Shown here in pieces: positions 6,594-41,493 of a stretch of 64,000 bases of DNA. Both the position numbers and the translations under genes were made by a program. The stretch is from Candidatus Pacearchaeota archaeon CG_4_10_14_0_2_um_filter_35_33 (GTDB taxonomy: Archaea > Nanobdellota > Nanobdellia > Pacearchaeales > GW2011-AR1), in assembly GCA_002792635.1 (NCBI GenBank), contig PFOR01000015.1, forward strand, positions 6,744 through 70,743, given 5' to 3'. Numbering within the stretch: position 1 is the stretch's first letter; each line of letters opens with the position of its first letter. Under the pieces are notes generated by a model, which searched no databases, had not been told where the DNA came from, and saw nothing but the letters and a program-made list of their open reading frames with translations.

Positions 6594-7127
6594 ATGGGAT
6601 TGATAGCTTCGGTTCTTCCGAGAGATGAGTTTGATAGCCTCCTTCTAATTTATGATATAAAAATTCGGTGATTTAAGAGTAGGTTCGTCTGGTGGGAAGG
6701 TTAAATCGGGAGAAACTCCAAGGAAGTGTGGAATTAGAGAACTAAAAGAAGAACTTGATATCAAAAAGTTCTTGTGTTTTATTCCATTAAAGTGTGGGGC
6801 TTGTTTGAACTTTTGGATGCTCAAGGTTGCATTCATTCATGCACTAAAGTATATGGTTTTCTGCATCGGCAACCTTGACATAACAGTTAGACTTGATAGA
6901 TTTATAGGCACTTATAGAACAACTTCTCCTGAAGGAGATTTCCTAGCATTTACTTATTTTACAACAATAATAGATGGCAGCCGAAAATAATGGAGCCTAG
7001 GAAGATAGGCCATTATGATTGGTTTGACCTTGAATCGATAGAGAGATTGGCAGAAAAAACAGGGACAGTTAATCCTAATTTAATAAGTCCGTTGTCAGAG
7101 ATTAAAAGATACATCGAGGGAAACTAA
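6594..7127 (+). pseudogene. Nudix hydrolase disrupted by two homopolymer frameshifts and a 126-nt repeat insertion
   Basis: Nudix box GGKVKSGETPRKCGIRELKEELDI. The frame breaks at A-run 6659..6663 and at the A-run near 6985. The repeat element occupies 6758..6883 in-frame. Confidence 0.7.
6758..6883 (-). repeat. MITE-like modular repeat, copy A (full length, inside the Nudix gene)
   Basis: The reverse complement is near-identical to 16599..16726. It differs by a few substitutions and a 2-nt indel in the CCACAC-TTTA-GTGTGG hairpin. Confidence 0.85.
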
Positions 7128-24376: not shown

Positions 24377-25093
24377 TTAAAGTTTTGACTGAATGATTTG
24401 ATTAAATACTTCAAAGGGTTGTGCACCACTTACAACTGTTCCTTCTCCGGTATTGCCTGAAGCAATCAAGAAGTAAGGTGTACCTCTTCCGCCTTTTGCC
24501 TGCGCTTCACTCATGTCTTCCTTGACATTTGCAACTTTTTCTCCTGAATCAAGGCATTCGTTGAATTTCTCTGTGTTTAATCCAAGTTGTACAGCGTATT
24601 CCTTGAATGTATCAACACCACCTGCAACTCCCTGCTCAAAGAGTATGTTATGCATTTCCACAAACATTCCCTGGTCTGCAGCACATTCAGATGCTTCTGC
24701 AGCCTTCTGAGCATCTGGATGGATGCTTGTCAAAGGAAACTGCTTGTAGACAATTGCAACCTTATCACTATATTCCGCCTTAATCTGGCTAACAGCTCCT
24801 AGATAAGCCCTCTGACAGAAAGGACATTCAAAGTCAGAGTATTCCACTACAAACACGTCAGAATTCATACTTCCCTGAAGGAAATTGTCATCTTCCGTAA
24901 CTTCTATATTGTAAGTAGCCCCTCTTCCGCTATTATCTTTAACCACATTGCCTGTCGGGCTAGGGTTATTTGGCAGTATAAATGCAACTCCGCCGATAAC
25001 AAGGACAGCTAGCAGGACAAAAGTGGAGTATTTCCACAAAGCGTCTTTCCTGATTTTTATTGTTCCGCTATCGTTATTTTGTTCTTCTTTCAT
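24377..25093 (-). CDS. Membrane-anchored DsbA-like thiol:disulfide oxidoreductase
   Basis: N-terminal helix followed by a thioredoxin fold with VVEYSDFECPFCQRAY (CPFC active site). Confidence 0.85.
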   Translation of the reverse strand: MKEEQNNDSGTIKIRKDALWKYSTFVLLAVLVIGGVAFILPNNPSPTGNVVKDNSGRGATYNIEVTEDDNFLQGSMNSDVFVVEYSDFECPFCQRAYLGAVSQIKAEYSDKVAIVYKQFPLTSIHPDAQKAAEASECAADQGMFVEMHNILFEQGVAGGVDTFKEYAVQLGLNTEKFNECLDSGEKVANVKEDMSEAQAKGGRGTPYFLIASGNTGEGTVVSGAQPFEVFNQIIQSKL

Positions 25094-25646
25094 TGTTTTT
25101 ACCCCCTTTCATTTGTTGAATAGTACATACCTCACAAATTGTTAAATCCTTCGATATTTTAAATATTGCGAATCCTATGATTATGATTGCCAGGACCGAG
25201 ATTTCTAGGCCTTTAAATGGGAGTAATGATATGAAAATTCCTCCTATTCCTAAGACAGCTATCAATCCAATTCCGCATGCTGCACATCCTGGGGCAAGAA
25301 GGGCGATAAATATTCCGACTGAACTTAATACCCCTGTCTTTTTGGACTTGTGTTTAGCATTTTTTATTTTAAAAGTTATTAAGGAGATTAAGATGCCTAT
25401 TAATAACGACGAGAGAACCAGGGAAATATAAGAATGAAGCAAGGTTGATTTATGGAAATCAATTGATCCATTAAACAAATAGATTATTCCAGACAGCAAG
25501 CCGTAGTTTTTTAAAAATGAGGAGAGAGTTTGATAATTTTGAATTATCACATTTAATATGTAAAAGATTAAAGCTATTATTATTGTTAATATTGCATATC
25601 CCGGCTTCTTGAATACAGTTTTCCAAACGTTTATTATTTCATTCAT
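25074..25646 (-). CDS. Polytopic membrane protein with two CxxC motifs (APGCAACG within a helix; CEVC near the C-terminus)
   Basis: 190 aa with about 5 helices. Its 3' end overlaps the DsbA-like gene start by 20 nt. Confidence 0.6.
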   Translation of the reverse strand: MNEIINVWKTVFKKPGYAILTIIIALIFYILNVIIQNYQTLSSFLKNYGLLSGIIYLFNGSIDFHKSTLLHSYISLVLSSLLIGILISLITFKIKNAKHKSKKTGVLSSVGIFIALLAPGCAACGIGLIAVLGIGGIFISLLPFKGLEISVLAIIIIGFAIFKISKDLTICEVCTIQQMKGGKNNERRTK

Positions 25647-25864
25647 ATTATTTCTATTTTATGTTTAATTCCAAACCAAATTAAGATAAACGCTATTATG
25701 ATGTAAATTGTAAGAATCACGGGATTATAGAATATTAAGAGAGAAAGGAGTTTTGTTTTAATTATATAATTCTGTCCTGATTCTGTTTGAATTTTTATAA
25801 AATAAGTGACTAGCAGAATCGCTAATATTGCTATGCCTATATAGAATGGGTATTTTGGTTTCAT
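25643..25864 (-). CDS. Small two-helix membrane protein
   Basis: 73 aa. Has 4-nt overlaps with both neighbours, which suggests an operon. Confidence 0.5.
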   Translation of the reverse strand: MKPKYPFYIGIAILAILLVTYFIKIQTESGQNYIIKTKLLSLLIFYNPVILTIYIIIAFILIWFGIKHKIEII

Positions 25865-26343
25865 TCCTTTAATACAACTACGTTAGTCATTCCTCTCCTC
25901 TTTCTTTCTACTAACTTGTGACCTTCTAATCTATCAATTACCCTCGTCATTTTTGCCTTTCCGAATCCTGTTTGTTCGATTAAATCTGCTTGAAAGATTG
26001 CTTTTTTTTCCTTAACGAGATTAAATACTTTCTTTTCCTCGGGTTTTAACCCATTTAAGTCGTATTTCTTAGGTTTTTGTTTTTCTTTTACTTTCTTTAC
26101 AATTATTCTTTCTTGTGGTTTTGAGAACACTAAGACCAGACCTATTATGACTAGTAAGGCTGCAATTGCAAAAGAAAGATAGGTTTGCTGGTCTATCGAC
26201 TGATACATTGGACATGATGTTCCATGTTCTGTTGAACAAGTTGCGTCGACTATGTCTCTCATTGTGTTATTAAATAAAAATATTATAAATATTATTACGA
26301 TTGCGATTCCGATAATTAAGTACCCAACTTTCTTATTTTCCAT
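25861..26343 (-). CDS. Membrane-anchored winged-helix (MarR/TrmB-like) transcriptional regulator with Cys-containing external loop
   Basis: From M25 of the listed ORF (25861..26415): helix, loop DATCSTEHGTSCPMYQ, helix, basic linker, then LNGLKPEEKKVFNLVKEKKAIFQADLIEQTGFGKAKMTRVIDRLEGHKLVERKRRGMTNVV (wHTH). Confidence 0.7.
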   Translation of the reverse strand: MENKKVGYLIIGIAIVIIFIIFLFNNTMRDIVDATCSTEHGTSCPMYQSIDQQTYLSFAIAALLVIIGLVLVFSKPQERIIVKKVKEKQKPKKYDLNGLKPEEKKVFNLVKEKKAIFQADLIEQTGFGKAKMTRVIDRLEGHKLVERKRRGMTNVVVLKE

Positions 26344-26387
26344 TGATTTTACTTGGAAACAGGCTTTAAGAAGTTTATGAATTTTCA

Positions 26388-26471
26388 TGAAACTGGGGCG
26401 TGAAACTAGCCTCATAAGATTTAGAAAATCTTAACAAAGCAAGGGTTTCACTGTGTGAAACTAGTTTCACA
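26388..26471. promoter_or_regulatory. Divergent control region with an 18-bp palindrome and extra half-sites
   Basis: Perfect palindrome TGTGAAACTAGTTTCACA at 26454..26471. Extra half-sites GTTTCAC at 26445..26451, GTGAAACTAG at 26400..26409 and TGAAACT at 26388..26394. TATA-like CTTAAATAAAA lies downstream. Confidence 0.65.
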
Positions 26472-26506
26472 AAAGCGCTTAAATAAAATCGATTCCTGGA
26501 AAACGC

Positions 26507-27133
26507 ATGACTGAAAAAATGAATAAGGAGTTTGTGGCACAGATTGTTGTTATCTGTGTACTTGCGTTATTAATCTCATTTAACGTGGGAAGAATGTATT
26601 CTCCTGGATTATCTACAGGTATAAGAACAGTTTCTGCTTCTGATGTTATTCCTACTGGCATGCCTAGCATATATGGAGAAGAGCTAGGAATTAGTTATGA
26701 TGATATTTCACCTAATGACCCTAGGTTGGCAGATGCTACTATTAATAAGATGAGTGAATATGAGGATACGCAGTTAAATGAGGAACAGATGACTCATTAT
26801 ATTAATATAGCCGGTTCTATCAGTTGCGAGTATTGTTGTGGAGCCGAATCTATTATATTTAGTAATGGAGAGAGAGCTTGCGGATGTGCCCATAGTTATG
26901 CTATGAGGGGATTGGCAAAGTACTTGTTAATCAATCATCCTGAGATGGGTGATGATGAAATTCTTACGGAACTGGCTAAATGGAAAACTTTGTTTTTCCC
27001 TGGAATAATGGAAGCTAAGGCACAGGCATTAAAAGATAATGGGATTGAGTTTAACTATATCAATCTCAGTAGTAATGCCTACAGAGGAATTGAGAAGGGA
27101 CAAGGAAGTGGAGGCATGGTCGGAGGATGTTAA
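26507..27133 (+). CDS. Anchored Cys-motif protein (CEYCCG..ACGCAHS) with C-terminal GSGGMVGGC
   Basis: 208 aa. N-terminal helix, Cys cluster SISCEYCCGAESIIFSNGERACGCAHSY, and a terminal cysteine. Confidence 0.6.
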   Translation: MTEKMNKEFVAQIVVICVLALLISFNVGRMYSPGLSTGIRTVSASDVIPTGMPSIYGEELGISYDDISPNDPRLADATINKMSEYEDTQLNEEQMTHYINIAGSISCEYCCGAESIIFSNGERACGCAHSYAMRGLAKYLLINHPEMGDDEILTELAKWKTLFFPGIMEAKAQALKDNGIEFNYINLSSNAYRGIEKGQGSGGMVGGC

Positions 27134-27339
27134 AATTTTTGACTGCTGGTTTGATGCTGATGCCTGGAGTTCTGGCTTGTGGGCCTCATGAAGAAGCTGG
27201 ACATGGTTATAGTACGATGGGTCTTGGGTTTTCTGGAGGCTTATTTGGTTTTATTATACAAATTTTAATTATTGCTACCCTTGTGTTGGGAATATCATTA
27301 TTGGTTAAGAATCTAAATATGAAAGGAGGGAAAAGATGA
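27127..27339 (+). CDS. Small membrane protein with His/Met-rich segment
   Basis: 70 aa. Signal-like N-terminus ending VLAC, then GPHEEAGHGYSTMG, then a C-terminal helix. Confidence 0.5.
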   Translation: MLKFLTAGLMLMPGVLACGPHEEAGHGYSTMGLGFSGGLFGFIIQILIIATLVLGISLLVKNLNMKGGKR

Positions 27340-27503
27340 AAGTAAAAAAGAGCACTTTGTTGTGGGTTGTGATTGCAGTTCTTTTCATAGCTGTTTTGTG
27401 GATGACATTCCAAACAGGAAATGTTGATGTTGCTTCGCAAGCCGCTGAAACTACATCAAGATCTGCATCTGCTTATGGAAGTGGCATGGTAGGGGGTTGT
27501 TAA
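27336..27503 (+). CDS. 55-aa anchored peptide ending GSGMVGGC
   Basis: Hand-found: MKVKKSTLLWVVIAVLFIAVLWMTFQTGNVDVASQAAETTSRSASAYGSGMVGGC*. ATGA overlap with the upstream gene; the next gene starts 2 nt after its stop. Confidence 0.45.
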   Translation: MKVKKSTLLWVVIAVLFIAVLWMTFQTGNVDVASQAAETTSRSASAYGSGMVGGC

Positions 27504-27504
27504 G

Positions 27505-27975
27505 ATGAAAGGATTGTTTATTTTTATTGGTATTGCTATTTTATTAGTTGGAGCGTTTTTTGTGATTGGTGGAGGGATTACAGGTAATGCGGTTGGAACT
27601 GCATCTGCACAAGTAACAATGTATAAATCACCTACATGCGGATGTTGTGTGGGGCACGGAGGATATTTAGAGAGAGTGGGATTTGATGTTAATACAATTG
27701 CAGATGATGGAACTTTGGCAAAGGTTAAAGATGAGTTTGGTATTCCTGCAAATATGAGAAGCTGTCATACAGCAGTGATTGGAGATTATTTTGTTGAAGG
27801 GCACATTCCAATTGAGGTTATTGAAAAGTTATTAGCTGAGAAACCGGATATTGACGGTATTGCGTTGCCGGGTATGCCTTCTGGAAGCCCGGGTATGCCT
27901 GGTGTGAAGAGGGGAGACTGGGTAATTTATGCAATTAAAGATGGTCAAGTGATTAGAGAGTTCGTGAGAGTATGA
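27505..27975 (+). CDS. DUF411 (CopG-like) metal-binding protein, membrane anchored
   Basis: SPTCGCC, CHTAVIGDYFVEGHIP and PGMPSGSPGMPG. Confidence 0.8.
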   Translation: MKGLFIFIGIAILLVGAFFVIGGGITGNAVGTASAQVTMYKSPTCGCCVGHGGYLERVGFDVNTIADDGTLAKVKDEFGIPANMRSCHTAVIGDYFVEGHIPIEVIEKLLAEKPDIDGIALPGMPSGSPGMPGVKRGDWVIYAIKDGQVIREFVRV

Positions 27976-28403
27976 GATATGAAAAACAAACCTACTGGAT
28001 TGTGATATTCGCTCTGGTTATTGTTTTGTTTGTTAGCTATCTACCCAATAGTCATTCAATGAATCTGAGTGACATGAGTATGGAAGAAAAAAAAGAATTT
28101 CACATTTCTTTGAAGACAGACATACAAGAAGAGTTATTGGAGCAGAGCAGGTATAGATGTTGTTTAAAAAAGCCATGTACCTATTGTATTGAAAAGACAC
28201 CAGGACATGGAGAGGGAGCAACATGTGATTGTTTGAGCGATATTGTGAATGGAAAACATCCGTGTGGTGAATGTATTGGAGAAATCTTAGAGGGTCATGG
28301 TAATCCGTATTTGAAAGAGTATTTCGCTGAAGCAATAGCTGAGGAAGTTGGCATGAATCATTTAGATGAAATACAAAAAATAATTGATGAGAAGTATGCT
28401 TAA
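27972..28403 (+). CDS. Anchored Cys/His-rich protein
   Basis: CCLKKPCTYCIEKTPGHGEGATCDCLSDIVNGKHPCGECIGEILEGHGNP. Confidence 0.6.
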   Translation: MRYEKQTYWIVIFALVIVLFVSYLPNSHSMNLSDMSMEEKKEFHISLKTDIQEELLEQSRYRCCLKKPCTYCIEKTPGHGEGATCDCLSDIVNGKHPCGECIGEILEGHGNPYLKEYFAEAIAEEVGMNHLDEIQKIIDEKYA

Positions 28404-28404
28404 A

Positions 28405-28842
28405 ATGGAAAAAGATAACTCAATATTATATGGATTGTTAGCGGGAGCAGGATTACTAGTTTTTTATCTTGCTGTAGTTTCTGCTTTTCAAGGTATGGAA
28501 TTCGCGTTTATTAATCTTAGAAGTCTTTGGTTTTTGGTATTTCCCTTGGCTATTGGATTTGGATGGCAGGTTGGACTATTTGCTTCCATAAAACACACAG
28601 CACAGATTAATGGTATTGTTGCAGGAACAGGGGCTGTTTCTGCCGGAGGGATGCTGGCTTGCTGTAGTCACTTTTTATTGAACATGCTCCCTTTTCTTGG
28701 AGCTGCTGGATTGGCAACTGTATTGATGGAATATCAAGCATGGTTTTTAGGTGTTGGTTTGCTGGCGAATGTTGCTGGGATTAGATTCATGTTAAAGCAT
28801 AAGAAGAAAATGAAAAAGATGAAAGGAGGTTGTTGTAAATGA
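28405..28842 (+). CDS. Four-helix membrane protein with intramembrane vicinal Cys pair (MLACCSH) and C-terminal GGCCK
   Basis: The ATG at 28405 follows the upstream stop directly. The listed ORF begins earlier at a TTG (28384). Confidence 0.6.
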   Translation: MEKDNSILYGLLAGAGLLVFYLAVVSAFQGMEFAFINLRSLWFLVFPLAIGFGWQVGLFASIKHTAQINGIVAGTGAVSAGGMLACCSHFLLNMLPFLGAAGLATVLMEYQAWFLGVGLLANVAGIRFMLKHKKKMKKMKGGCCK

Positions 28843-29063
28843 AGAAAGCTATTTTGTATATTTTAATTGCTATTCTGTTAATTGTAATAATTGTTATGAC
28901 CTTCTTTCCTAATATGATTTATGCTTTTCAGCATGGGGTAACTGGAAACGTTGTTGCAGAAGATGCTGGAGATAAATGTACTCATCCAGAAGGAACTTCA
29001 GTAGAAGATTGGCAGACACATATGTCGCACCACCCGAATATCTATAGGGAATGTTTGGAGTGA
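28839..29063 (+). CDS. Small anchored His/Cys-motif protein
   Basis: 74 aa. Helix, then VTGNVVAEDAGDKCTHPEG..WQTHMSHHPNIYRECLE. Confidence 0.5.
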   Translation: MKKAILYILIAILLIVIIVMTFFPNMIYAFQHGVTGNVVAEDAGDKCTHPEGTSVEDWQTHMSHHPNIYRECLE

Positions 29064-31930: not shown

Positions 31931-32120
31931 ACAATAATAAAATAAATTGTAGTTAAAAATCTTATGGATTATTTCTTAACTGGAAAAAAGAAAATAAATC
32001 ATACCGCCTAAACAAGCCAAGCCATCTGACCAGTCTTTCCATGAATCAATCCAGGAATGCCATAAATATCAAAAAATCCAAAAAAAAATCCTAAATGCCA
32101 ATTTTTTCTAGGTGTCTTCT

Positions 32121-32396
32121 TTACCATTCCAAACTCTTAATCTCAACATCTTCATAAACAATCACTTTCAATTCATAAAACTTAATTGTATCTTCAACTT
32201 GGTCATCAAAATACCTCAGCTGAAAATCTCCTGCATCTTCCTTTGCCTTAGGGTCATAAAGCTCTATCAGCATCTCCTTAGTGGTCTTATAATCCTCAAA
32301 AACATAATGAGCATCCACCACCAGTTCCTTTCCATTCACCTTCATTTTATCGCCTTTCACTATCTTGCCAATCGGCTTTGATGATTTTATCTTCAT
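32121..32396 (-). CDS. Hypothetical protein
   Basis: 91-aa ORF with no motif recognised. Confidence 0.45.
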   Translation of the reverse strand: MKIKSSKPIGKIVKGDKMKVNGKELVVDAHYVFEDYKTTKEMLIELYDPKAKEDAGDFQLRYFDDQVEDTIKFYELKVIVYEDVEIKSLEW

Positions 32397-32467
32397 ACTC
32401 TTCAGAGAAACAGATTATTTTTAAGCTTTGGGATTCTCCTAAAGCCATGGAAATACCAATATCTAGA

Positions 32468-32522
32468 ATCAAAAAATTCTTACGTGTTTGAACTTTTGGA
32501 TGCTCAGGTAACCTTGACATAA
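32468..32522 (-). repeat. MITE-like modular repeat, copy D (minimal; both internal modules absent)
   Basis: The reverse complement reads TTATGTCAAGGTTACCTGAGCATCCAAAAGTTCAAACACGTAAGAATTTTTTGAT. Confidence 0.7.
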
Positions 32523-32582
32523 AAAGCCATAGGAGGATATAAAAAGTCTAAATTCGAGAAATGATAGAATGTAAACACCTAA

Positions 32583-33167
32583 ATGGTAGCTAAAAAAGAA
32601 AGCTTGGAATTGATGACTGATAAAGAATTAGCCCAATTAGCCCAAAGAGTTGTTGAAGGAGATGATGAAGCATTTGATAGAATAATGCAGATTTATTCGC
32701 CATATTTTTACAAATTATGTTTAAATTTCGTACATTCTAAGGACAAAGCAGATGACATTCACCAAGAGGCTACAATAAAGATGTGGGAAAAAATGAGTCA
32801 ATACGACTCCTCGAGAACCTTCATAAAATGGGCAACTGCGATTTATAAAAACACAGCAATAGACTATCTAAGAAAAGTCAAGTCGAGAAATAATATTCAC
32901 TATGTAAACAACATAGATTTCTCAAGATATGCAACACCAGAACGAACAACCTCAATTTCAGAAGAGGAAAGGTTAGACCTGGAGAAGGGTATAACTTCAT
33001 TACCTGAAACTCCTAGAGAAGTAATAACAGTTATCTATTTTAGAGGATACTCTTTATCCGAAACTGCCAGATTATTGGGAAAACCTGGCGGTACAATAAA
33101 ATCAGCATTAAGTCGGGGTTTAAATAAATTAAGAGAGAAAAGTGAATTAGAAAAACAAATAGCTTAA
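32583..33167 (+). CDS. Bacterial-type ECF (sigma-70 family) RNA polymerase sigma factor
   Basis: Region 2: DDIHQEATIKMWEKMSQYDSSRTFIKWATAIYKNTAIDYLRK. Region 4: LPETPREVITVIYFRGYSLSETARLLGKPGGTIKSALSRGLNKLRE. Confidence 0.85.
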   Translation: MVAKKESLELMTDKELAQLAQRVVEGDDEAFDRIMQIYSPYFYKLCLNFVHSKDKADDIHQEATIKMWEKMSQYDSSRTFIKWATAIYKNTAIDYLRKVKSRNNIHYVNNIDFSRYATPERTTSISEEERLDLEKGITSLPETPREVITVIYFRGYSLSETARLLGKPGGTIKSALSRGLNKLREKSELEKQIA

Positions 33168-33169
33168 AT

Positions 33170-33352
33170 TCAGTTCTTCACAAAACTTTCTACAACTAAA
33201 ATAGGAAACAAGAGAGTAGCATCCCCAAAAACTTTAACACTCTTAGCCTCTTTTTTGATTTTTCCCCAACATCTATAATCCACCTCTTCTGATGATTCTG
33301 GACAATGATAAGGCAAATCTCTAATCTTGTTAAAAACTTGAATGGTATCCAT
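33170..33352 (-). CDS. Small hypothetical ORF (possibly a gene fragment)
   Basis: 60-aa ORF with no motif recognised. Confidence 0.3.
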
Positions 33353-33458
33353 ATTTTTTTGATAAACATTAAAATATTAAAAGGTTTTCCATTAGGGTTC
33401 TCAACTTTATTTTATTTAAACCCGGTTAGTTTCGTCCGAATACTTGCAGGGATTACAT

Positions 33459-33660
33459 TTTAGTGCAACGATGCCGAAGGGAAAACCCTAAAAAATAGTA
33501 GATTTTTGGGGCACCAAAAACTGAAAGTTTTTTAGCGAATCAAAGTTTTTGAGAATGTCGTTTTATACGATTTTGAAATAATATTTTTTTGGGTGGGCTA
33601 TGTATTAGAGAGACGCGCGCTTTTTTTGTTTCTTTTTTCTAAAAAGAAAATGAGGAGTTC
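33459..33660 (+). repeat. 202-bp direct repeat, copy 2
   Basis: See copy 1 (29108..29309). Confidence 0.95.
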
Positions 33661-33688
33661 TTATTTTGCTTCTTTTTCTAAAAGAAGA

Positions 33689-33961
33689 TTATTCCTCTTC
33701 TTCAGAAGTGCTTAACATATTTTTTAAGAAATTTCCAAAATTTCCAGTTCTTTGGTTTTTTGCTTTTTCCAAAGAACCAACAGATTTTACTCTAATATAA
33801 TCCTTAACATAAGCCAAAACTCCATAAACAAATTCTTTTGGAGATTCGGAAGTATAAAGTGGCTCAACTTTAAAAGAATCATCAACAAGCCCTTCTCTCT
33901 TTGCTTCTCTTTCAAATAATTTAAATTTCCAATATTGCGTTGGATTTGTTGCGATTTTCAT
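33689..33961 (-). CDS. Hypothetical protein
   Basis: 90-aa ORF. Confidence 0.45.
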   Translation of the reverse strand: MKIATNPTQYWKFKLFEREAKREGLVDDSFKVEPLYTSESPKEFVYGVLAYVKDYIRVKSVGSLEKAKNQRTGNFGNFLKNMLSTSEEEE

Positions 33962-33965
33962 ATGA

Positions 33966-34442
33966 TTAACTTTTTTTTCTTTTCAACTTTTTTATCGAAT
34001 ATAAAAAATTCTCTAAAGTATCTCTCGATTTTCCTTCAATAATAAAATCAGATGGTTTTAATCCATAGTGTTCTCTTAATTCTTTGTAAATTGAATATTG
34101 CTGTGATTCCTTTTCTGGTCGCCCTCTTTCATCTCTTTGAATTTCCCCACTAACAAGAACATAAGGTTTTGGTTCTTTTGTATGGGAGTGGCTTCTCATA
34201 ACGGTTCCAACTCTTTTTTGGTCTGCTTCTAAAGTTCCTGTTGGAATAACTAAAGATTCAAGAGATTTATTTACAACAAATAAAATAAGAGAAGCCATAA
34301 AGAAAGTTAAGCTAAAAACAAAAAATAAAATATTCTTGATTTCTATATTAGTTCCGATAACTGCTCCTGTAAAAATTATATCAACAGATAAAAATAGAAA
34401 AACAAATCCTACAAGTAATAAAACTAAAGACAACTTCTTCAT
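33966..34442 (-). CDS. Membrane-anchored DUF218/YdcF-like protein
   Basis: ..YVLVSGEIQ..KPSDFIIEGKSRDTLENFLYS.. resembles the DUF218 ..SG...S.NT.EN pattern. Start taken at MKKLSLVLLL (the listed ORF extends to 34520). Confidence 0.5.
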   Translation of the reverse strand: MKKLSLVLLLVGFVFLFLSVDIIFTGAVIGTNIEIKNILFFVFSLTFFMASLILFVVNKSLESLVIPTGTLEADQKRVGTVMRSHSHTKEPKPYVLVSGEIQRDERGRPEKESQQYSIYKELREHYGLKPSDFIIEGKSRDTLENFLYSIKKLKRKKS

Positions 34443-34502
34443 AATATTTTTATGAAAAGAGGATATAAAAAGATATTTAAAACAAAAAGAGATTGTGTTT
34501 TT

Positions 34503-34760
34503 ATGAAAAAGAGATTTCAAAGAAAAATATTATCAACTTTTGCATTTTCTGTAGTTGCATCAGTTTTAATGATTGTTCACGGAATTTTTTTAGATTTAGA
34601 TTTTGCTCAAATAAAAAGATTAAGTTTAGAAGGTTTTGCATTTACTTTTGTATTGGTCTTTATTGGTTTGCTTATTCTTGAAAAAATATTCAATCTTGAG
34701 GAAGACGAAGAAATTATTAAAATAAAAAAAAGATTGAATAAGATAGAAAAGAAAAAATAA
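34503..34760 (+). CDS. Small membrane protein
   Basis: Two helices and a K/E-rich tail. Start taken at MKKRFQRKIL (the listed ORF begins at 34452). Confidence 0.4.
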   Translation: MKKRFQRKILSTFAFSVVASVLMIVHGIFLDLDFAQIKRLSLEGFAFTFVLVFIGLLILEKIFNLEEDEEIIKIKKRLNKIEKKK

Positions 34761-35150
34761 TTCTCGGCGTGAGCCGACTATTTGTCCGAAGGACTAAAAA
34801 CCTCTCAGATTAAATGAAAAATTTGGGTGAGTGATAACGAACCTCTTAACCATTGTTAGAAAAAGTGCGAAGCATTTTGTTGTTTTTCTCGTCGGTCGGA
34901 TAAAAGAAGTTTTTTCCTTTATTTTTGAGGCGACAATCTGCTATTTAGGGGCGGTGGTCGGGGGTTTCAGAGTTCACTTTAATTGAAATGAATCGCGGTT
35001 ATGTCTGGGTGAGCGTAGCGAAAGTCTGCAAGACGGCACCGAGCACCACAACGAAGTGAGGAGCGGAGAGTTAAAATCACTTTTCAGGGCGGGCAATGTA
35101 TTAGAGAAGTTGTTGTGTATTTTTGTTTTCTTTTTCGGAAAAAAAGAGAT
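34761..35150. other. Non-coding, locally G+C-richer segment with stable hairpins, ending in a diverged partial third copy of the 202-bp repeat
   Basis: TCGGC-GTGA-GCCGA at 34764..34777 (GNRA loop) and GTCC-GAA-GGAC at 34784..34794. GGGCGGGCAATGTATTAGAGA (35087..35107) parallels GGGTGGGCTATGTATTAGAGA of the repeat. Only short spurious ORFs are present. Confidence 0.5.
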
Positions 35151-35197
35151 TTTCAAGAAACCGAAAGATTTTTATAGTTATACAAGTATGTATACCC

Positions 35198-35476
35198 ATG
35201 CCACAAGAAACATTAAGAAAAAACATTTTGCACTATCCACAATTAGATACTATTCTAATGGTTGAGGAATTTATTAGAGATAACTCTGGAGAATATAAGA
35301 AAAAATCTCTCTGGGAAGCTCTGCCTAGAAAGATGATTTATCAGACTTTTTGCGTGATATTTGACTACTTACTAGAATCTGGAAAAATAACACAAGACAA
35401 AGAGGGTTGGGTTGTTTGGATTTGGAATCCAGAATTAGTAAGAAAATATCTTTCTAAATCCTATTTATCAAGATGA
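35198..35476 (+). CDS. Small winged-helix-like protein; putative antitoxin/partner of the downstream RelE-like gene
   Basis: ATG 35198 lies ~25 nt after the TATA-like TTTTATAG. It has a 4-nt ATGA overlap with the toxin gene. The partner role is inferred from position only. Confidence 0.45.
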   Translation: MPQETLRKNILHYPQLDTILMVEEFIRDNSGEYKKKSLWEALPRKMIYQTFCVIFDYLLESGKITQDKEGWVVWIWNPELVRKYLSKSYLSR

Positions 35477-35802
35477 AATCGCAAATAAAATTTGCTGAAG
35501 AAAAATTGAAAGAAAGTTTTGAGAGACTTAAAGATTCAAAAACAGAAGATAAAAAACTTTACGAGTGGATAAATAGAGCATTAAATGATTTAGAAGAAAA
35601 CGCTTTTTGTGGAATAAGAATACAAAAAAGATTAATCCTGAAAGTTTACATTGAAAAATATATCATTGATAATTTATGGAAATATGACTTGCCCAAAGGT
35701 TGGAGATTGATTTATTCTGTTGCAAATGGGGAAGTTTGTGTTTTATCCATAATTCTTGAATGGATAGACCATAAAGATTATGAAAGAAGATTTGGGTATT
35801 AA
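35473..35802 (+). CDS. RelE/ParE-superfamily toxin
   Basis: ..LWKYDLPKGWRLIYSVANGEVCVLSIILEWIDHKDYERRFGY matches the RelE/ParE C-terminal core (..RiiY.v....v.il.i..H..Y). Confidence 0.7.
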   Translation: MKSQIKFAEEKLKESFERLKDSKTEDKKLYEWINRALNDLEENAFCGIRIQKRLILKVYIEKYIIDNLWKYDLPKGWRLIYSVANGEVCVLSIILEWIDHKDYERRFGY

Positions 35803-35804
35803 TC

Positions 35805-36065
35805 TTGTTCAAAGAAGATTTAAGACACGAGTTTATTTCCTCACAAAGTAGTCTGCAGACAATTTTGAAGAAAGCTGGAAGGAAAGCAGAGATTGAAAGG
35901 GTTCATCCACATATGTTAAGGCATAGCTTTGTCACTCATTTGATTGAAAATGGATATGCGGTGAATGACGTTCAGGTACTATTGGGGCATAAGAGCCCTG
36001 AAACTACAATGATTTCCCTGCATGCTTCTGGGAACATGATTAATGTTAGAAGCCCCTTGGATTAA
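35805..36065 (+). pseudogene. Tyrosine recombinase (XerC/D-like integrase) C-terminal remnant
   Basis: VHPHMLRHSFVTHLIENGYAVNDVQVLLGHKSPETTMISLHAS. No ATG and no N-terminal domain. The catalytic Tyr position reads Ser (canonical ..TT.IYTH). Confidence 0.75.
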
Positions 36066-36066
36066 C

Positions 36067-36086
36067 TTGTGAAACTAGTTTCACAA
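36067..36086. promoter_or_regulatory. Perfect 20-bp palindrome TTGTGAAACTAGTTTCACAA (operator candidate)
   Basis: The 18-bp core at 36068..36085 ends 35 nt before ATG 36121. TATA-like AATATATATTA lies between. Confidence 0.65.
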
Positions 36087-36120
36087 TAACCAATATATAT
36101 TAGAATTCATAAATAATAGC

Positions 36121-36606
36121 ATGAAAAAAGTAATCCTGGTTTTGATGTTTGTTCTCTTGATAGGGGGAGTAATGGCTCATGGGGAGGAAACTTTTGAGGA
36201 AGCAGAAGAAATAATCATACAGAAAATATCCTGTGATGAGCTGACAGAGAATCAGTTGGAGGTTTTGGGAGATTATTACATGGAGCAGATGCATCCTGGA
36301 GAGTTACATGAGATAATGGATGAAAAGATGGGGGGAGAAGGTTCTGAATCATTAAGACAGGCTCATATCAATATGGCTCTAGCGTTTTATTGCGGAGAGC
36401 ATGATGAGTTTTCTGGAAGTATGATGGACGTTATGATGGGAAGGACAGAAGATAATAGTTATGGAATGATGGGAGGCTATGGAATGTATGGATTTAATTG
36501 GTTTAGGATTATTATACAACTGGCAGTCACTACCCTGTTAGTCTTATTAATTATCTGGTTTATCAGGAAGCTAAATGAAAAACCAAAAAAGAGAAAGAGA
36601 AAATGA
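36121..36606 (+). CDS. Secreted/anchored Met/His-rich protein
   Basis: Signal peptide, HGEE.., MMDVMMGRTEDNSYGMMGGYGMYG, and a C-terminal helix. Confidence 0.6.
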   Translation: MKKVILVLMFVLLIGGVMAHGEETFEEAEEIIIQKISCDELTENQLEVLGDYYMEQMHPGELHEIMDEKMGGEGSESLRQAHINMALAFYCGEHDEFSGSMMDVMMGRTEDNSYGMMGGYGMYGFNWFRIIIQLAVTTLLVLLIIWFIRKLNEKPKKRKRK

Positions 36607-36986
36607 AAAAGAATCTTGTTTATTTGATATTAGGAGCAATTATTATTATGGCTGTTGGCGTAACCTTTGTTGATTTTGATAATCAGATTGTTTCTGTTAA
36701 TAGTGAGGAGTTTGCTAATCTAATAGATGCTGCATTTGTTTTACAAGTACATGAGCCGTATTATGGAGAGATAGAAGGGACTGATTTAGTTGTTGAAGAT
36801 TGGGATAATCTGGACTCTTATATAGATAAGCTTCCCAAGGATAAGAAGATTGCAATTTACTGCCGTTCGGGAAGAATGTCAGGAATTGTTGCAGAGCAGT
36901 TAGCAGAGAGGGGTTATGATGTATATGATTTAGAAGGGGGAATGAATGCCTGGCAGGAATCGGGCAAGGAGTTAATAGTAAGATGA
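36603..36986 (+). CDS. Membrane-anchored rhodanese-domain protein
   Basis: Active-site loop IAIYCRSGRMSG and ..LEGGMNAWQ. Confidence 0.85.
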   Translation: MKKNLVYLILGAIIIMAVGVTFVDFDNQIVSVNSEEFANLIDAAFVLQVHEPYYGEIEGTDLVVEDWDNLDSYIDKLPKDKKIAIYCRSGRMSGIVAEQLAERGYDVYDLEGGMNAWQESGKELIVR

Positions 36987-37360
36987 TTGGATTTTCTAAG
37001 AAAACGAATTTAGGATTTGAGGAGGCAGAGAAGAAAGTTAGGCAGGAGCTAGAGAAAGAGGGATTTGGTGTTCTTACAGAGATTGATGTTTCTGCTGTAT
37101 TAAAGAAGAAGCTGGATAAAGATTATGGTAAATACAAGATTCTTGGAGCTTGTAATCCTCCTTTTGCCTTTAAGGCTTTAGAAGCTGAAAAAGAGATTGG
37201 GCTTTTATTGCCTTGTAATGTTATTATTTATGAGAATAATGGTGTAAATGTCTCGGCTGTGAATCCAATGGAGGCTATGGAGATGATTGAAAATGAGGGA
37301 TTAAAAGGGATTGCAGAAGAAGTTTCAGAAAAACTGAAGATGGTGATTGAGAGGGTTTGA
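36983..37360 (+). CDS. DUF302-family protein
   Basis: [44 protein letters not shown]. Confidence 0.75.
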
Positions 37361-37389
37361 TTTTTATAGTTTCGGATATTAATGATAAG

Positions 37390-39672
37390 ATGAAAAAAGC
37401 GATAATAGATATAGAAGGAATGCATTGTGCTTCATGTGCTGCCAACCTGGGAAAGAGTTTGAAAAAGGTTAAAGGAGTTAAAGATGCTAATGTTAATTTA
37501 GTTGTTAAGAAAGGATATTTGGAGTTATCAGGAAAAGTAAAGGAAGAGGATTTGAGGAAAGCAGTTTCTAAGGTTGGAAATTATAAGATTGCTAATATTG
37601 ATTATGAAAATTATGGTAAAGACGATAAAGAAAATAATTATCGCAATACTATGGGTGGTGGGGAGAGAGATGATAATCACAAGATGAATCATGATGGGCA
37701 CGATATGAGGGGCGGGATGAATCATGGTAAACACACAGGACATGAACATGGCAGTGTGGATGAAAAAGAAATAAAATCATGGAAGAGGAAGATGTGGATT
37801 GCATGGCCTATTACAATTGTGATAATGTTTGTCATGTTTTCTGAAAGGCTTTTTGGTCTAAGGCTGTTTGAGGAGAATATTATAGTTATTGTTTTGCTTA
37901 TATTGAGCTTTCCTGTTATTTTTATTCTTGGCTGGCAAACATTAAAGGGCGGTTTGAAAGGATATATTAGTTTCTATTTCAACATGGATTCACTAATCGG
38001 CTTGGGAACTGTTATTGCTTGGCTTACAGGAATACTGGCTTTATTTGGCATCACGCAGGACTTTTCTGGTATCTCAGCTATGATAATGACTTTCTTCATT
38101 ACTGGAAAGTATGTTGAAGTAAAGGCAAGAGGGCAGGCAGGGCAAGAAATTAAAAAATTGTTGGAATTGGGTGCTAAGAAGGCAAGAATTATTAGAAATG
38201 GAAAGGAAATAGGGATTGATATTTCAGAAGTTAAGGTGGGAGATATTATGATTGTTAAACCAGGAGAGAAAATCCCGACAGATGGAATTATTGTTAAAGG
38301 AGAAAGCAGTATTGATGAGAGCAGTGTTACTGGAGAATCAGTTCCTATTGATAAAGTTCTTGGAGACAAGGTTATAGGAGCAACTGTTAATCAGGATGGT
38401 ATTTTAGAAGTAAAGGCAGAGAAAATAGGAAGAGATACTTTTTTATCTAATGTGATTAAACTTGTTGAGAATGCTCAAGGAAGCAAGATTCCAATTCAGG
38501 CATTTTCTGATAAGATAACTAATGTGTTTGTTCCTGTGATTTTAGGATTGACAATATTAACCTTTGTAGGATGGTATTATTATACGGGAGATTTGAGTCG
38601 GGCTATTGGTGTTGCTATTTCTGTTTTAGTCATAGCTTGTCCTTGTGCTCTTGGTTTAGCAACCCCAACAGCGTTAATGGTTGGCTCTGGAATAGGAGCT
38701 AAAAGAGGGATATTAATCAGAAAGGGAGAGGCAATTCAGACTATGAAAGAGGTAAAAATAGTGATGTTTGATAAAACAGGAACAATTACAAAGGGGAAGC
38801 CTGAAGTTGTTGATATTTATTCACTAGTAAAAGAGAATTATCTGATGGAGGTTGTTGCATCCATAGAAAAGCAGAGCGAACATCCTATTTCTCATGCAAT
38901 TGTGGAAAAAGCCGGCTTGAAGAAGTATAAAGAGGTTTCAGGGTTTAAGATATTAAGAGGCAGAGGAGTTACAGGAGTTATTGGAAAGAAGAAGATTTTG
39001 ATAGGAAATAGGACTTTGATGGATGAGAACAAGGTTAAACTAGATAAACTTGAGAAGAAAGTTAAGGAATACGAATCTAAAGGGCAAACAACTATGATTG
39101 TTGCTGAAAATAAGGAGGCGATTGGTGTTATTTCGGTTGCGGATGATGTTAAGGAAGATTCCAAGGAAGCAATAAAGGAACTGCATGATTCGGGATATAA
39201 GACAGTTATGATTACAGGAGACAATGAAGCAACTGCTAGGGCCATTGCTAAGAAGGTTGGGATTGATGAAGTTATTGCTAACGTTCTTCCGGAAGATAAA
39301 GTTAGAAAAGTAGAAGAATTACAAGAAAAAGGAATGGTGGCATTTGTAGGAGATGGTGTTAATGATGCTCCTGCATTAAAACAGGCAAATGTCGGGATTG
39401 CTATGGGTACCGGGACGGATATTGCAATAGAGGCAGGAGATATTGTTCTTGTTAAGGGTTCCTTACAAGGAGTTGTGGGAGCTATCAATTTATCAAAAGC
39501 CACGTTCAAAAAAATAAAGCAGAATTTATTCTGGGCTTTTGGATATAATGTTATTGCAATACCAATCGCCGTAGCAGGATTTCTAAATCCTGCGATTGCT
39601 GAGATAGCGATGGCTCTTTCTAGTGTCACTGTTGTGGGGAATGCTAATTTGTTGAGGAAAAAGAAGATTTAG
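37390..39672 (+). CDS. copA: Copper-translocating P1B-type ATPase
   Basis: HMA domain GMHCASC, His-rich linker, CPC, DKTGTIT and GDGVNDAP. The listed ORF begins at a TTG (37357); the first ATG is at 37390. Confidence 0.95.
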
Positions 39673-39841: not shown

Positions 39842-40126
39842 ATGGATAAAAAGATTATTTTCCTGTTCGTTATTTTAGGGATTTTGGTTGTTGCGTTGGC
39901 TTTGTTCATTGGGTATTCTACGGAATCTGATAATGAAAGAGTTGATAATGGAAATGGATGTATTGAAATTGGATGTCCTAGTGCTGAATATGTTGGGAGC
40001 ATTAATTCTGATAAATATTATCCCTGTGATTGTAGATATGCTAAAACTGTAAAATTAGAAAATATTGTCTGTTTTGATTCAGACCAGGAAGCTGTTGACA
40101 AGGGTTATGAAAAGAGTGATTGCTAG
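39842..40126 (+). CDS. Small anchored Cys-rich protein
   Basis: Helix, then ..NGCIEIGCP..KYYPCDCRYAKTVKLENIVCFDSDQEAVDKGYEKSDC. Confidence 0.5.
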   Translation: MDKKIIFLFVILGILVVALALFIGYSTESDNERVDNGNGCIEIGCPSAEYVGSINSDKYYPCDCRYAKTVKLENIVCFDSDQEAVDKGYEKSDC

Positions 40127-40338
40127 AATCCGAGGATACCTAATCTATACAATGCTGAGCCAACCCATAAGATTAATAGAAGATACAAGATAGCCCACCC
40201 TTTTGAAGCAGAGAAATGTTTTACGAATCCTTTTCCTAGATTCTTTTTATACCATTTAGAGAAAAATAGAATTGTTATAGCCGCTACAATGCTGTCTATC
40301 AAAAATAAGTACCAGATTATTGATTCTATTGAAATCAT
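40123..40338 (-). CDS. Small two-helix membrane protein
   Basis: 71-aa ORF. Confidence 0.5.
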   Translation of the reverse strand: MISIESIIWYLFLIDSIVAAITILFFSKWYKKNLGKGFVKHFSASKGWAILYLLLILWVGSALYRLGILGF

Positions 40339-40499
40339 TTTTTCCTTGTTAGCTGTACCCGAGCCATTAAGATAAATCCTGCTCCTAGTCCTATAAACAT
40401 TCCTGCAACTAATTGGTCGTATAGGAACCCAAGGCCCATCCCTAAAATCAAACCACCAGGGATAAACAAGCCAGACGCATCACCCTGTTTCTTTTTCAT
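40335..40499 (-). CDS. Candidate 54-aa Gly-rich membrane peptide
   Basis: Hand-found: MKKKQGDASGLFIPGGLILGMGLGFLYDQLVAGMFIGLGAGFILMARVQLTRKK*. ATGA overlap with 40123..40338. Confidence 0.4.
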   Translation of the reverse strand: MKKKQGDASGLFIPGGLILGMGLGFLYDQLVAGMFIGLGAGFILMARVQLTRKK

Positions 40500-40530
40500 G
40501 TTGTAAGAAAGGGAATTTTGTATATAAAAG

Positions 40531-40550
40531 TTGTGGAACCAGTTTCACAA
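40531..40550. promoter_or_regulatory. Operator-like palindrome variant TTGTGGAACCAGTTTCACAA
   Basis: Two mismatches to the consensus. The core at 40532..40549 ends 35 nt before ATG 40585. TATA-like TTATTAAATAG lies between. It sits between divergent genes. Confidence 0.55.
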
Positions 40551-40584
40551 ACATTATTAAATAGTCTTTTTTATTAATGCTAGA

Positions 40585-41493
40585 ATGGTATTGTGTATAA
40601 TTGCTCTGCCTGTATTTGCAATTTTAGGATTATTTAGTGTGAAGTATAGGCAGCTTGCTAGTGAAAGTTTGGATTGTATGTTTAGGACAGTTACATTTAG
40701 GCGATGTCAATTGGGATTGGATGATAGGATAAAATCAGATTTGACAGGGAAATTGATGAAAAGATCTCCTGCTCTTGCTCGATTTTTCTATAATTATTAT
40801 AAATTGATTTCGTGGATTGTATTGGTATTATTTATCTGGAGTGCTTATGCTACGGGAGTAGGATTGTATAACTATTATTTATATGGGAATTGTAATGGTC
40901 CTGATTCTGATGGCTTTTGTTTATTAAACCCAACGGGAAGCAATAGTGGTACATCGAAGATTATTGGAAGTATCCATGGAGAAGTAATCTTACCAGTAGT
41001 TGAAGAGGATGATTATATTTTTGGGAATCCTGAGGCTGAATTAACAATAATAGAGTTTGGGTGTTATAGATGTCCCTATACTAAACAAGCAGAAAGTATT
41101 GTTGATGAAGTTTTGGAATATTATAATGGTAGGGTTAATTTACAATTTAAGAGTATTTTATTAGAGCATGAATTGAGTTATGAATCTGCTTTGGCTGCTA
41201 ATTGTGCTTTGGAACAAGGGAAATATGAGGAATATCATGATAGGTTATTTGAGGAGCAAGAGATGTTGAATTATCTGGATTTTGTTAGAATTGCTAATGA
41301 TATTGATTTGGATTCCGAACAATTCAATGAATGTCTTGAAAGCGAAAGATATGAGGACGAAATTAGAGCAGACCACCAGGCAGGGATTGATGCGGGCATT
41401 CAGGGAACACCGACATTCTTTATTGGGGATGAGGTTATAGTCGGACCAAAACCTTTCAAGACGTTTAAGACAGTGATTGATAGGCAGTTATGA
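40585..41493 (+). CDS. Fusion of a two-helix Cys-containing membrane domain and a DsbA-like thioredoxin domain
   Basis: N-terminal part has C31/C41 and CNGPDSDGFC. C-terminal part has IIEFGCYRCPYTKQ (CxxC) and ..GIQGTPTFFIG. Confidence 0.75.
   Translation: MVLCIIALPVFAILGLFSVKYRQLASESLDCMFRTVTFRRCQLGLDDRIKSDLTGKLMKRSPALARFFYNYYKLISWIVLVLFIWSAYATGVGLYNYYLYGNCNGPDSDGFCLLNPTGSNSGTSKIIGSIHGEVILPVVEEDDYIFGNPEAELTIIEFGCYRCPYTKQAESIVDEVLEYYNGRVNLQFKSILLEHELSYESALAANCALEQGKYEEYHDRLFEEQEMLNYLDFVRIANDIDLDSEQFNECLESERYEDEIRADHQAGIDAGIQGTPTFFIGDEVIVGPKPFKTFKTVIDRQL

Follow-up and report, generated by a model that had tools for sequence, protein, structure and literature searches.

The locus described here raises a simple question: why does one and the same 18-bp palindrome, TGTGAAACTAGTTTCACA, stand at one and the same distance ahead of three plus-strand genes, the first of which diverges from the gene of a small, apparently membrane-bound regulator? 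The palindrome was noticed in a 64,000-nucleotide stretch of contig PFOR01000015.1 from Candidatus Pacearchaeota archaeon CG_4_10_14_0_2_um_filter_35_33 (below, the window means the whole of this 64-kb stretch), and a first-pass annotation made from the letters alone had proposed that it is the operator of a metal or thiol regulon. We argue that it is almost certainly a conserved regulatory operator at promoters predicted to be leaderless. As to the explanation as a whole, we lean towards the view that this operator serves a copper regulon, that it would be bound by a dimeric, membrane-anchored winged helix-turn-helix (wHTH) sensor, and that transcription would be activated from a position just upstream of the B recognition element (BRE).

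A pattern search of the window for TGTGAAACTAGTTTCACA, in which up to three mismatches were allowed, returned exactly three matches, against 0.05 expected, and none of the 100 dinucleotide-preserving shuffles that served as the chance set reached three. The first match, O1, is a perfect 18-bp palindrome at 26454-26471 (14-bp core at 26456-26469), located 35 nucleotides (nt) before the ATG at 26507 (+); the consensus drawn from over 130 orthologous promoters has exactly this sequence. The second, O2, is likewise a perfect 18-mer (36068-36085), extending to the 20-mer TTGTGAAACTAGTTTCACAA at 36067-36086, and lies 35 nt before the ATG at 36121 (+). The third, O3 (TGTGGAACCAGTTTCACA, 40532-40549), carries two mismatches; it is placed 35 nt before the ATG at 40585 (+) and, at the same time, 32 nt before the ATG at 40499 (-). 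The search thus confirms both the two perfect copies and the imperfect one noticed at first, and the earlier claim of a 35-nt interval proved exact at all three plus-strand starts when the sequence was read. In its middle the operator reads ACTAGT, a SpeI site with CTAG inside it (26461-26466 and 36075-36080); the central TA is kept in nearly all sites, CA being found only in O3 and a few orthologs.

Between O1 and the regulator gene there is also a degenerate second operator, O1' (26399-26416; core 26401-26414, TGAAACTAGCCTCA, two mismatches), located 57 nt upstream of the regulator's ATG. The half-site GTGAAACTAG at 26400-26409, first listed as one of several extra half-sites at this locus, turned out in a scan for the 14-bp core to be part of this full site, and the other two, GTTTCAC flanking O1 (26445-26451) and TGAAACT (26388-26394), are present as described. 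Comparable extra half-sites occur near the regulator promoter in related loci L006, L070 and L077. Where other loci usually have one operator shared by both sides, the window thus has two, with a perfect copy toward operon 1 and a degenerate copy toward the regulator. O1' is likely to be the autoregulatory site of the regulator's own promoter, as a core is found 34-92 nt upstream of the regulator ATG in 35 related loci.

Scans for the core, for half-sites and for the spacing to an ATG revealed no further promoter-placed site in the window, in agreement with the earlier remark that the motif was not seen between other genes there. One other two-mismatch core match, at 6137-6150, is located inside an open reading frame (ORF) and appears consistent with chance. 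The half-sites GTGAAAC, TGAAACT and GAAACTAG are not enriched in the window beyond the four sites, and therefore we do not deal with a dispersed repeat. A window search for weaker regulon members, based on a half-site 34-39 nt before an ATG, gave the three known sites and chance-looking ATTTCA matches only. A half-site-like element, ATTTCACAATAAAACTTATATA, stands 37 nt before the ATG at 8101 (-) of a 325-aa ORF and resembles the proximal half of O2 together with its promoter; it is probably due to chance, but it could mark a weak regulon member.

Related genomes show that the operator belongs to the lineage as a whole and is not a product of chance. Eighty genome loci were fetched with the regulator family as an anchor, and the motif was found in 58 of them with up to three mismatches in 16 positions. 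The 14-bp core, TGAAACTAGTTTCA, recurs in genomes of Pacearchaeota, Woesearchaeota and Nanoarchaeota, the groups whose metagenome-assembled genomes supplied the homologs of all proteins studied here, and in 35 loci it lies between a regulator gene and a target gene that are transcribed away from each other. On the target side, 46 promoters have the core 37 or 38 nt from the ATG, whereas on the regulator side the distance varies over the range given above. A scan independent of the regulator, in which all metagenome contigs were searched for TGAAACTAGTTTCACAAAAG, gave 121 matches; an ORF-opening ATG follows the core by 37-39 nt in 92 of them (37 nt in 65 matches, 38 nt in 21, and 39 nt in six), and about half of the motif sites are not adjacent to a regulator gene. 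In the window, O3 appears to be bidirectional, as its core lies 37 nt from the ATG at 40585 (+) and 34 nt from that at 40499 (-), and the latter distance is the commonest regulator-side spacing among related loci. When the 46 target promoters were aligned on the ATG, the pattern CACAAAAG-nnn-TTATATA emerged; down to the start codon, the consensus of the targets reads tTgTGAAACTAGTTTCACAAAAG-nnn-TTATATA-21 nt-ATG, which places the TATA box at -28..-22, and no conservation was seen in these 46 promoters outside -55..-20. The first-pass annotation had suggested looking for the motif, and for its enrichment at one position, in related genomes, and there the core stands at a rigid 37/38 nt from the target ATG in more than 130 promoters of other DPANN genomes and of metagenomes.

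It could still be argued that the palindrome is not a protein operator at all, but a mobile repeat, a hairpin in RNA or DNA (a terminator or a processing site) or a chance similarity. A perfect inverted repeat can indeed form a hairpin, and the remnant of an integrase gene ends only 2 nt before O2. However, the flanks beyond -55 and -20 are unrelated among promoters, the phasing to both the TATA box and the ATG is rigid, and the chance expectation is as low as stated above. It is, moreover, the operator sequence itself that is invariant, and not merely its pairing, since the variants are asymmetric and not compensatory; the site also lies upstream of the predicted transcription start and has no T-run. 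Invariant sequence, asymmetric variants and unrelated flanks therefore exclude a mobile repeat or a hairpin, and a dispersed mobile repeat, which had been named in advance as the observation that would speak against an operator, was not what we found. Hairpin, terminator and mobile-element readings were thus rejected on the basis of shuffle statistics, promoter alignment and ATG phasing, and we consider it extremely improbable that the palindrome is anything other than an operator.

Where does this operator stand in relation to the promoter? The A/T boxes reported at first about 25 nt before each ATG are real and occupy the TATA position of promoters in general. Promoter P1 behind O1 (26472-26485, +) consists of a BRE-like AAAG at 26472-26475, a GCG spacer and the TATA box TTAAATA at 26479-26485; the TATA boxes of the O2 target promoter and of the O3 plus-side promoter are ATATATA (36093-36099, +) and TTAAATA (40557-40563, +), and the boxes of all three plus-strand targets lie at -28..-22 from the ATG. 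On the minus side of O3, the TATA box TTTATATA (40521-40528, -) is found at -29..-22 from the ATG at 40499. A general promoter profile, obtained from 41 promoters of the window and 273 genes of related genomes, has an A-rich BRE-like element (AA) at -33/-32 and TTTAWATA at -29..-22 from the ATG. The TATA phasing, at targets and at general promoters alike, agrees well with that of a leaderless archaeal promoter, in which the TATA box precedes a transcription start at the start codon by some 25 nt and the BRE by some 33 nt; no Shine-Dalgarno-like leader is seen, and the position of TATA at -29..-22 from the ATG across promoters points to leaderless transcription as the norm in this lineage. With the TATA box fixed relative to the ATG, the operator spans -53..-36 of the predicted target promoters and ends exactly at the BRE-like AAAAG. 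The idea of an operator abutting the BRE and TATA box of leaderless promoters, put forward already in the first-pass annotation, is thus supported by the lineage-wide position of TATA and by the rigid 37/38 nt.

The candidate regulator is a protein of 160 aa encoded at 25861-26343 (-), divergently from target operon 1. Its residues 102-158 match Pfam DUF7343 (PF24034; 31.7 bits versus a cutoff of 27.6), a family without assigned function, and this domain is precomputed for nearly all of the best 120 homologs listed out of more than 1,399; those 120 are 60-79% identical to the regulator, save for a 99%-identical copy of the window protein (P0001). Pfam MarR_2 (24.1 versus a gathering cutoff of 27) and MarR (20.7 versus 24.6) both stay below threshold for this protein, there is no TRASH, AsnC or HTH_5 Pfam match, and an AsnC-family match in the PDB appears only at E = 0.085. 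MarR proteins of the PDB are matched by profile only weakly (E 7e-4 and above) and along the wHTH part alone; profile search and Foldseek together return generic MarR/ArsR-class wHTHs as the only neighbours, and no full-length analogue was found among solved structures. The AlphaFold2 model (pLDDT 84) is composed of a helical transmembrane (TM) hairpin (residues 2-35 and 45-73), a low-confidence basic linker and a minimal wHTH (residues 101-158) without extra helices, the MarR-type dimerisation helices that would flank it being absent from the model.

Between the two hydrophobic helices lies the loop C36-STEHGTS-C44-P-M-Y, for which the family motif is C-x3-H-x3-C-P-M-Y (C-x7-C-P-M). In an alignment of 26 sequences, C36, C44 and M46 are invariant, H40 is near-invariant, and the recognition-helix region GFGKAKMTRIIDRLEG...ERKRRGM is almost invariant. 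The loop is acidic and the linker after the second TM helix is basic (KKVKEKQKPKK), which fits the positive-inside rule and suggests that the N terminus is inside, the loop outside and the wHTH in the cytoplasm. With this predicted topology, the presence of TM segments and a DNA-binding domain in one chain fits the definition of a membrane-integrated one-component regulator. The regulator's own promoter has a TATA-like box, TTCTTAAAG (26364-26372, -), with TTCTTAAA at -29..-22 from the ATG at 26343, and an aaaCTTCTTAAAt element is likewise found upstream of orthologous regulators. Conservation of aaaCTTCTTAAAg at -29..-21 from this ATG in orthologs settles that the start codon is the one at 26343. 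The database gene model P0001 (184 aa, 25861-26415, -) begins with a 24-aa N-terminal extension (MRLVSRPSF...) which is the translated operator region, LVS being encoded by CTAGTTTCA; the extension recurs in homologs (P0031) and is a systematic mis-annotation of the start codon.

Is this protein the one that reads the operator? The regulator family consists of two paralog types. The Y-type (MENKxVGY), with the loop CxxxHGxxCPMY and the helix GKAKMTRIIDRLEG, has the core within 150 nt in 40 of 53 genes, whereas the W-type, with the loop CFIQHGDVxSCEMY (CFIQHGDVxSCEMYDSV) and the helix SKARMTRIVDKLEG, has it nearby in only four of 22. Among the motif-anchored metagenome contigs, many of which are short, 92 of 119 (77%) encode a member of the regulator family. 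Both co-localisations support the assignment of the divergent membrane wHTH gene as the regulator, which the first-pass annotation had made, and it is highly probable that the adjacent membrane wHTH protein, here the product of 25861-26343, binds the operator. The 13 Y-type regulator genes of the 53 that have no nearby motif count against this assignment.

One could propose instead that the palindrome is bound by some other factor, either an ArsR-type regulator or an unlinked soluble transcription factor, and that the membrane wHTH protein is merely a co-regulated neighbour. An ArsR-type HTH_5 gene is indeed present in 8 of the 144 motif-controlled operons examined, and the sites not adjacent to a regulator, about half of the total, would be easily accommodated. 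However, the window contains the motif three times and no ArsR-type gene, presence of the motif tracks the Y-type recognition helix, and the divergent regulator-operator-target layout occurs in 35 loci. As an ArsR-type gene is found on 8 of the 119 motif contigs, against the 92 with a membrane wHTH family member, the ArsR-type regulator was rejected as the binder, and we find a different reader of the operator very unlikely. The W-type paralogs often lie inside motif-controlled cop operons, right after an ArsR-type gene or CopA/HMA genes (for example, among loci L001-L080, in L019, L029, L034 at 6874-7365, L040 and L079). No separate W-type operator came out of a search for shared k-mers in 12 loci, which gave only coding and low-complexity k-mers.

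With the operator and its probable reader at hand, we may ask what is regulated. O1 precedes target operon 1 (26507-29063, +), composed of seven tightly packed or overlapping genes. Their products are a protein of 208 aa with CEYCCG...CGCAHS, two small proteins that end in Cys tails, a DUF411/CopG-like protein (27505-27975, +; identified with Pfam), a 143-aa protein rich in Cys, a membrane protein of 152 aa and a protein of 74 aa; this gene order recurs in related operons. Target operon 2, behind O2 (36121-39672, +), encodes a Met-rich 161-aa protein, a rhodanese, a DUF302 protein and the Cu(I) P1B-type ATPase CopA (37357-39672, +), which has an HMA domain at residues 17-74 and a CPC motif and scores 580 bits with TIGR01511 (cutoff 397); in subfamily match, HMA domain and CPC motif alike, it agrees with the Cu(I)-exporting P1B-1 ATPases. 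In the product of target gene 3 (40585-41493, +), a membrane domain with Cys motifs at the N terminus is joined to a DsbA-like thioredoxin domain (Pfam); in locus L037, an ortholog of this N-terminal domain is encoded 37 nt after the motif. Divergent from O3 are two small membrane-protein ORFs of 54 and 71 aa (40123-40499, -), without a Pfam match, which are possible additional targets. The minus-strand genes at 24377-25864 have the orientation of the regulator gene and overlap with it. They encode two membrane proteins, one of 73 aa and one of 190 aa with a CAAC motif, and a DsbA-like thioredoxin (24377-25093, -), an arrangement shared with related loci L200 and L201. The first-pass description of the downstream operons as encoding envelope proteins with Cys/His/Met motifs, DsbA-like domains and CopA was thus accurate, and DUF411, rhodanese and DUF302 can be added to it. 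The 208-aa, 143-aa, 152-aa, 190-aa and Met-rich proteins, as well as the 227-aa family described below, have no Pfam or NCBIfam match.

The Gly/Cys-rich C-terminal tails encoded in operon 1 read ...GSGGMVGGC and ...GSGMVGGC (coding at 27107-27133 and 27477-27503), and the tails ...GGGCGCGG and ...GSCGCGK are found in other regulon proteins (related loci L003, L050, L064 and L158); such tails may bind metal or may be a sorting or modification signal.

A similar content is seen across genomes. Single-linkage clustering of the operon proteins over-merged Cys/Gly-rich and TM proteins (cluster F0), and we thus used only well-defined clusters and Pfam-verified representatives. The first gene after the motif encodes a Met/Cys-rich polytopic membrane protein of about 227 aa in 86 cases and a member of the 208-252-aa CEYCCG...CGCAHS family in 49 cases (10 + 39), including the gene at 26507; further first genes encode Met-rich MMGY proteins (including that at 36121), cupredoxin-like proteins with CGCGG tails, multicopper oxidases, CopA, DUF411, DsbB-like and DsbA-fusion proteins. 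Cupredoxins, HMA chaperones, CopA, DUF302, an ArsR-type regulator and the W-type paralog are encoded further downstream in the operons. The ~227-aa family, the commonest first gene after the operator, carries the motifs CMSGMMxGMTxGM and GxCCGxMG (for example in L038, where it is divergent from the regulator, and in L041 and L080) and the genes behind it are usually those for a cupredoxin-like protein, a small protein rich in Met, an HMA chaperone and CopA. This ~227-aa family, which the window lacks, is a candidate for a new family of copper-handling membrane proteins.

DUF411 corresponds to copG, which is induced by Cu within the CueR regulon of Vibrio (PMC12341060). CopA, HMA proteins, multicopper oxidases, cupredoxins and DUF411/CopG downstream of the operator mark the regulon, as far as gene content can tell, as one for copper detoxification with accessory thiol-oxidoreductases, and the metal or thiol regulon proposed earlier can accordingly be narrowed to copper. 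The signal itself is probably copper as well. Several facts should make one cautious here: many regulon families (227-aa, 208-aa, Cys-rich) are without known function, the Dsb-like proteins and the rhodanese could point to thiol or sulfur stress, and the loop with its Cys, His and Met residues might accept Ag, Hg, Cd or Zn or become disulfide-bonded.

One may thus consider that the signal is thiol/disulfide redox stress in the envelope, or another thiophilic metal (Hg, Ag, Cd, Zn), with the C-x7-C loop acting as a redox switch serviced by the DsbA-like system. The regulator gene is grouped in one operon with a DsbA-like protein and a CxxC membrane protein, O3 precedes a DsbA fusion, DsbB-like, rhodanese, DUF302 and many Cys-rich proteins belong to the regulon, and the regulator loop has two invariant Cys residues, 8 residues apart. 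On the other hand, the signature genes across genomes are copper-specific (P1B-1 ATPase, multicopper oxidases, cupredoxins, HMA, DUF411/CopG). The loop also contains an invariant Met and a near-invariant His, and Met and His are typical Cu(I) ligands rather than redox-switch residues. Dsb-like proteins, in turn, are known accessories of copper resistance, as in the Scs system. A redox signal or another metal is thus unlikely in our opinion, and we go on with copper as the presumed signal.

How might copper at the cell surface change transcription? A dimer is suggested by the 14-18-bp palindromic site, and in the mechanism that we propose the membrane-anchored winged-helix protein of 160 aa (25861-26343) would form this dimer on the operator. 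This protein would work as a one-component sensor, in which the two-helix membrane hairpin exposes the Cys-x3-His-x3-Cys-Pro-Met loop outside the cell and a flexible basic linker joins the hairpin to the cytoplasmic wHTH. A thiophilic metal, Cu(I) or Cu(II), would change the geometry of the dimer upon binding to the loop, and the DNA-bound wHTH pair at -53..-36 would then help TFB and TBP to assemble, which would amount to activation from directly upstream of the BRE. In the window this would switch on CopA with the rhodanese, DUF302 and Met-rich proteins, the DUF411/CopG Cys-rich envelope operon and the Dsb-like oxidoreductases, whereas the regulator's own operon would be switched on through the degenerate site at 26399-26416.

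The sign of the effect is the least secure step of this scheme. On balance we expect activation rather than repression: the operator was found over the TATA box, or between it and the start, in none of more than 130 promoters, and its phasing is rigid. In archaea, TrmBL1 is an activator at sites upstream of BRE/TATA and a repressor at sites downstream of them (PMC4706686), and CopR of P. furiosus, whose semi-palindrome immediately precedes the BRE of promoters induced by Cu, activates in vitro (PMC7830388). There are, however, features that do not sit easily with an activator. Near-consensus TATA boxes and BRE-like elements, as present at the targets, are more typical of repressed than of activator-dependent promoters, the outer bases of the operator touch the BRE, so that occlusion of TFB would be equally feasible on steric grounds, and the variable spacing on the regulator side (34-92 nt) argues against a single stereospecific mechanism at both promoters.

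The same operator and the same regulator could thus be imagined to act by repression, the unliganded dimer on -53..-36 blocking TFB at the BRE and the metal releasing or distorting it, with derepression of the cop genes as the result. Besides the strong TATA (TTATATA) and BRE-like AAAAG of the target promoters, the last bases of the 18-mer running into the BRE and the variable regulator-side spacing, such a view could draw on the fact that at 34-nt spacing (many regulator promoters and the minus side of O3) the core and the TATA box are no more than 5 nt apart. The closest folds to the regulator's wHTH, moreover, belong to the MarR/ArsR class, most members of which are repressors. However, the operator never occupies the usual positions of archaeal repressors, that is over the TATA box or between it and the start (PMC4706686), in the more than 130 promoters; the rigid 37/38-nt phasing suggests a stereospecific contact; and the functional analogue CopR activates from the very same position. 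We thus regard repression as the less likely of the two and retain activation.

The surroundings of the sites have some further features. The window is archaeal in its features and has a GC content of about 35%, and the lowest values (0.315-0.327) are found in the ~4 kb ahead of O2 (32100-36065), which contain several small ORFs. A C-terminal fragment of a tyrosine recombinase (86 aa, 35805-36065; Phage_integrase, E = 4e-18) closes this stretch, and the whole may be a decayed integrated element inserted beside the cop promoter. Within the same low-GC stretch, a 194-aa ORF at 32583-33167 (+) has bacterial-type sigma-70 regions 2 and 4 (ECF-like; Pfam E 1e-12 to 1e-5), which is unexpected in an archaeal contig; it was probably acquired horizontally or is borne by the element. 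Two of the five tRNA genes of the window, at 46676-46819 (-) and 52933-53061 (-), were found by Rfam and missed by ARAGORN; their lengths of 144 and 129 nt indicate introns. All tRNA genes found by ARAGORN (71-81 nt) are without an encoded CCA.

How DPANN archaea regulate their genes is still practically uncharted territory, since hardly any of them have been cultured. What we describe is a complete testable module, made up of an operator, a rigid promoter architecture and a candidate sensor-regulator that is small enough to synthesise; the 14-18-bp operator barely varies across regulators that share only 50-65% identity with that of the window. We put forward tentatively, as a possibility somewhat short of a firm proposal, that this is the first defined DPANN regulon and the first membrane-tethered, metal-sensing archaeal transcription factor, whose loop would read extracytoplasmic copper and which would recruit the basal machinery at -51..-38 and tether cop promoters to the membrane, the W-type paralog in the regulated operons forming a second tier. 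If copper is truly sensed outside the cell with direct action on DNA, this would be a minimal alternative to the bacterial CusRS/CopRS systems and to the cytoplasmic archaeal CopR. In practical terms, the regulon flags abundant unannotated membrane and Cys/Met-rich families (227-aa, 208-aa CEYCCG) as copper-handling candidates, the operator can serve as a marker for finding cop regulon members in metagenomes, and the recurrently mis-annotated start codon of the regulator is corrected.

The literature searched (for the motif string, DUF7343/COG2512 and DPANN copper regulators) contained no description of this system, and we compare it here with its closest counterparts. The winged-helix fold and the palindromic operator are shared with the MarR and ArsR/SmtB families, in which Cys- or metal-based sensing is common; unlike in those families, the MarR dimerisation helices are replaced here by a membrane hairpin, with MarR scores below cutoff and no HTH_5 match. 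In bacteria, membrane-integrated one-component regulators of the ToxR, CadC and BcrR types work without a phosphorelay and are usually activators, and periplasmic Cys residues modulate the activity of CadC and ToxR. As in these proteins, a sensor outside the membrane and a DNA-binding domain inside are united on one chain. Theirs, however, is an N-terminal DNA-binding domain of the OmpR or XRE type with a single TM segment and a large periplasmic domain, whereas here the architecture is inverted and far smaller: a MarR-like wHTH lies C-terminal to a TM hairpin, the sensor loop is about 9 residues long, and the partner is the archaeal transcription machinery.

For membrane-tethered transcription factors in archaea, the only precedents found in the literature searched are ArnR and ArnR1. 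These one-component activators, which sit in the membrane of Sulfolobus acidocaldarius and control its archaellum (Lassak 2013 and Bischof 2019, cited in PMC12107092), likewise combine a wHTH and two TM helices in one polypeptide, but in the reverse order, with an N-terminal HTH, sensing and HAMP domains and C-terminal TMs. They belong to Crenarchaeota, have archaellum and pili targets and a non-metal signal, and bear no sequence relationship to the regulator described here.

The closest functional counterpart is CopR of P. furiosus/Thermococcales and Sulfolobales (PMC7830388). It too controls an archaeal copper regulon with CopA and metallochaperones among the targets, it too is encoded divergently from cop genes (copR from copA there, 35 loci here), and its (semi-)palindrome immediately precedes the BRE of almost every promoter it regulates, just as the operator described here ends at -36/-38. 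In contrast, CopR belongs to the Lrp family and is a soluble octamer whose TRASH/His sensor is cytoplasmic, whereas the regulator found here is an unrelated 160-aa protein with a membrane hairpin, a MarR-like wHTH and a predicted extracytoplasmic Cys/His/Met loop, without TRASH or an Lrp HTH, and the motifs differ as well (TTNNCAWWWTGNNAA for CopR, TGAAACTAGTTTCA here). Metal-responsive operator-regulator pairs and membrane-bound one-component transcription factors are thus both already known; what appears to be new is this type of sensor, its operator and the lineage in which they occur.

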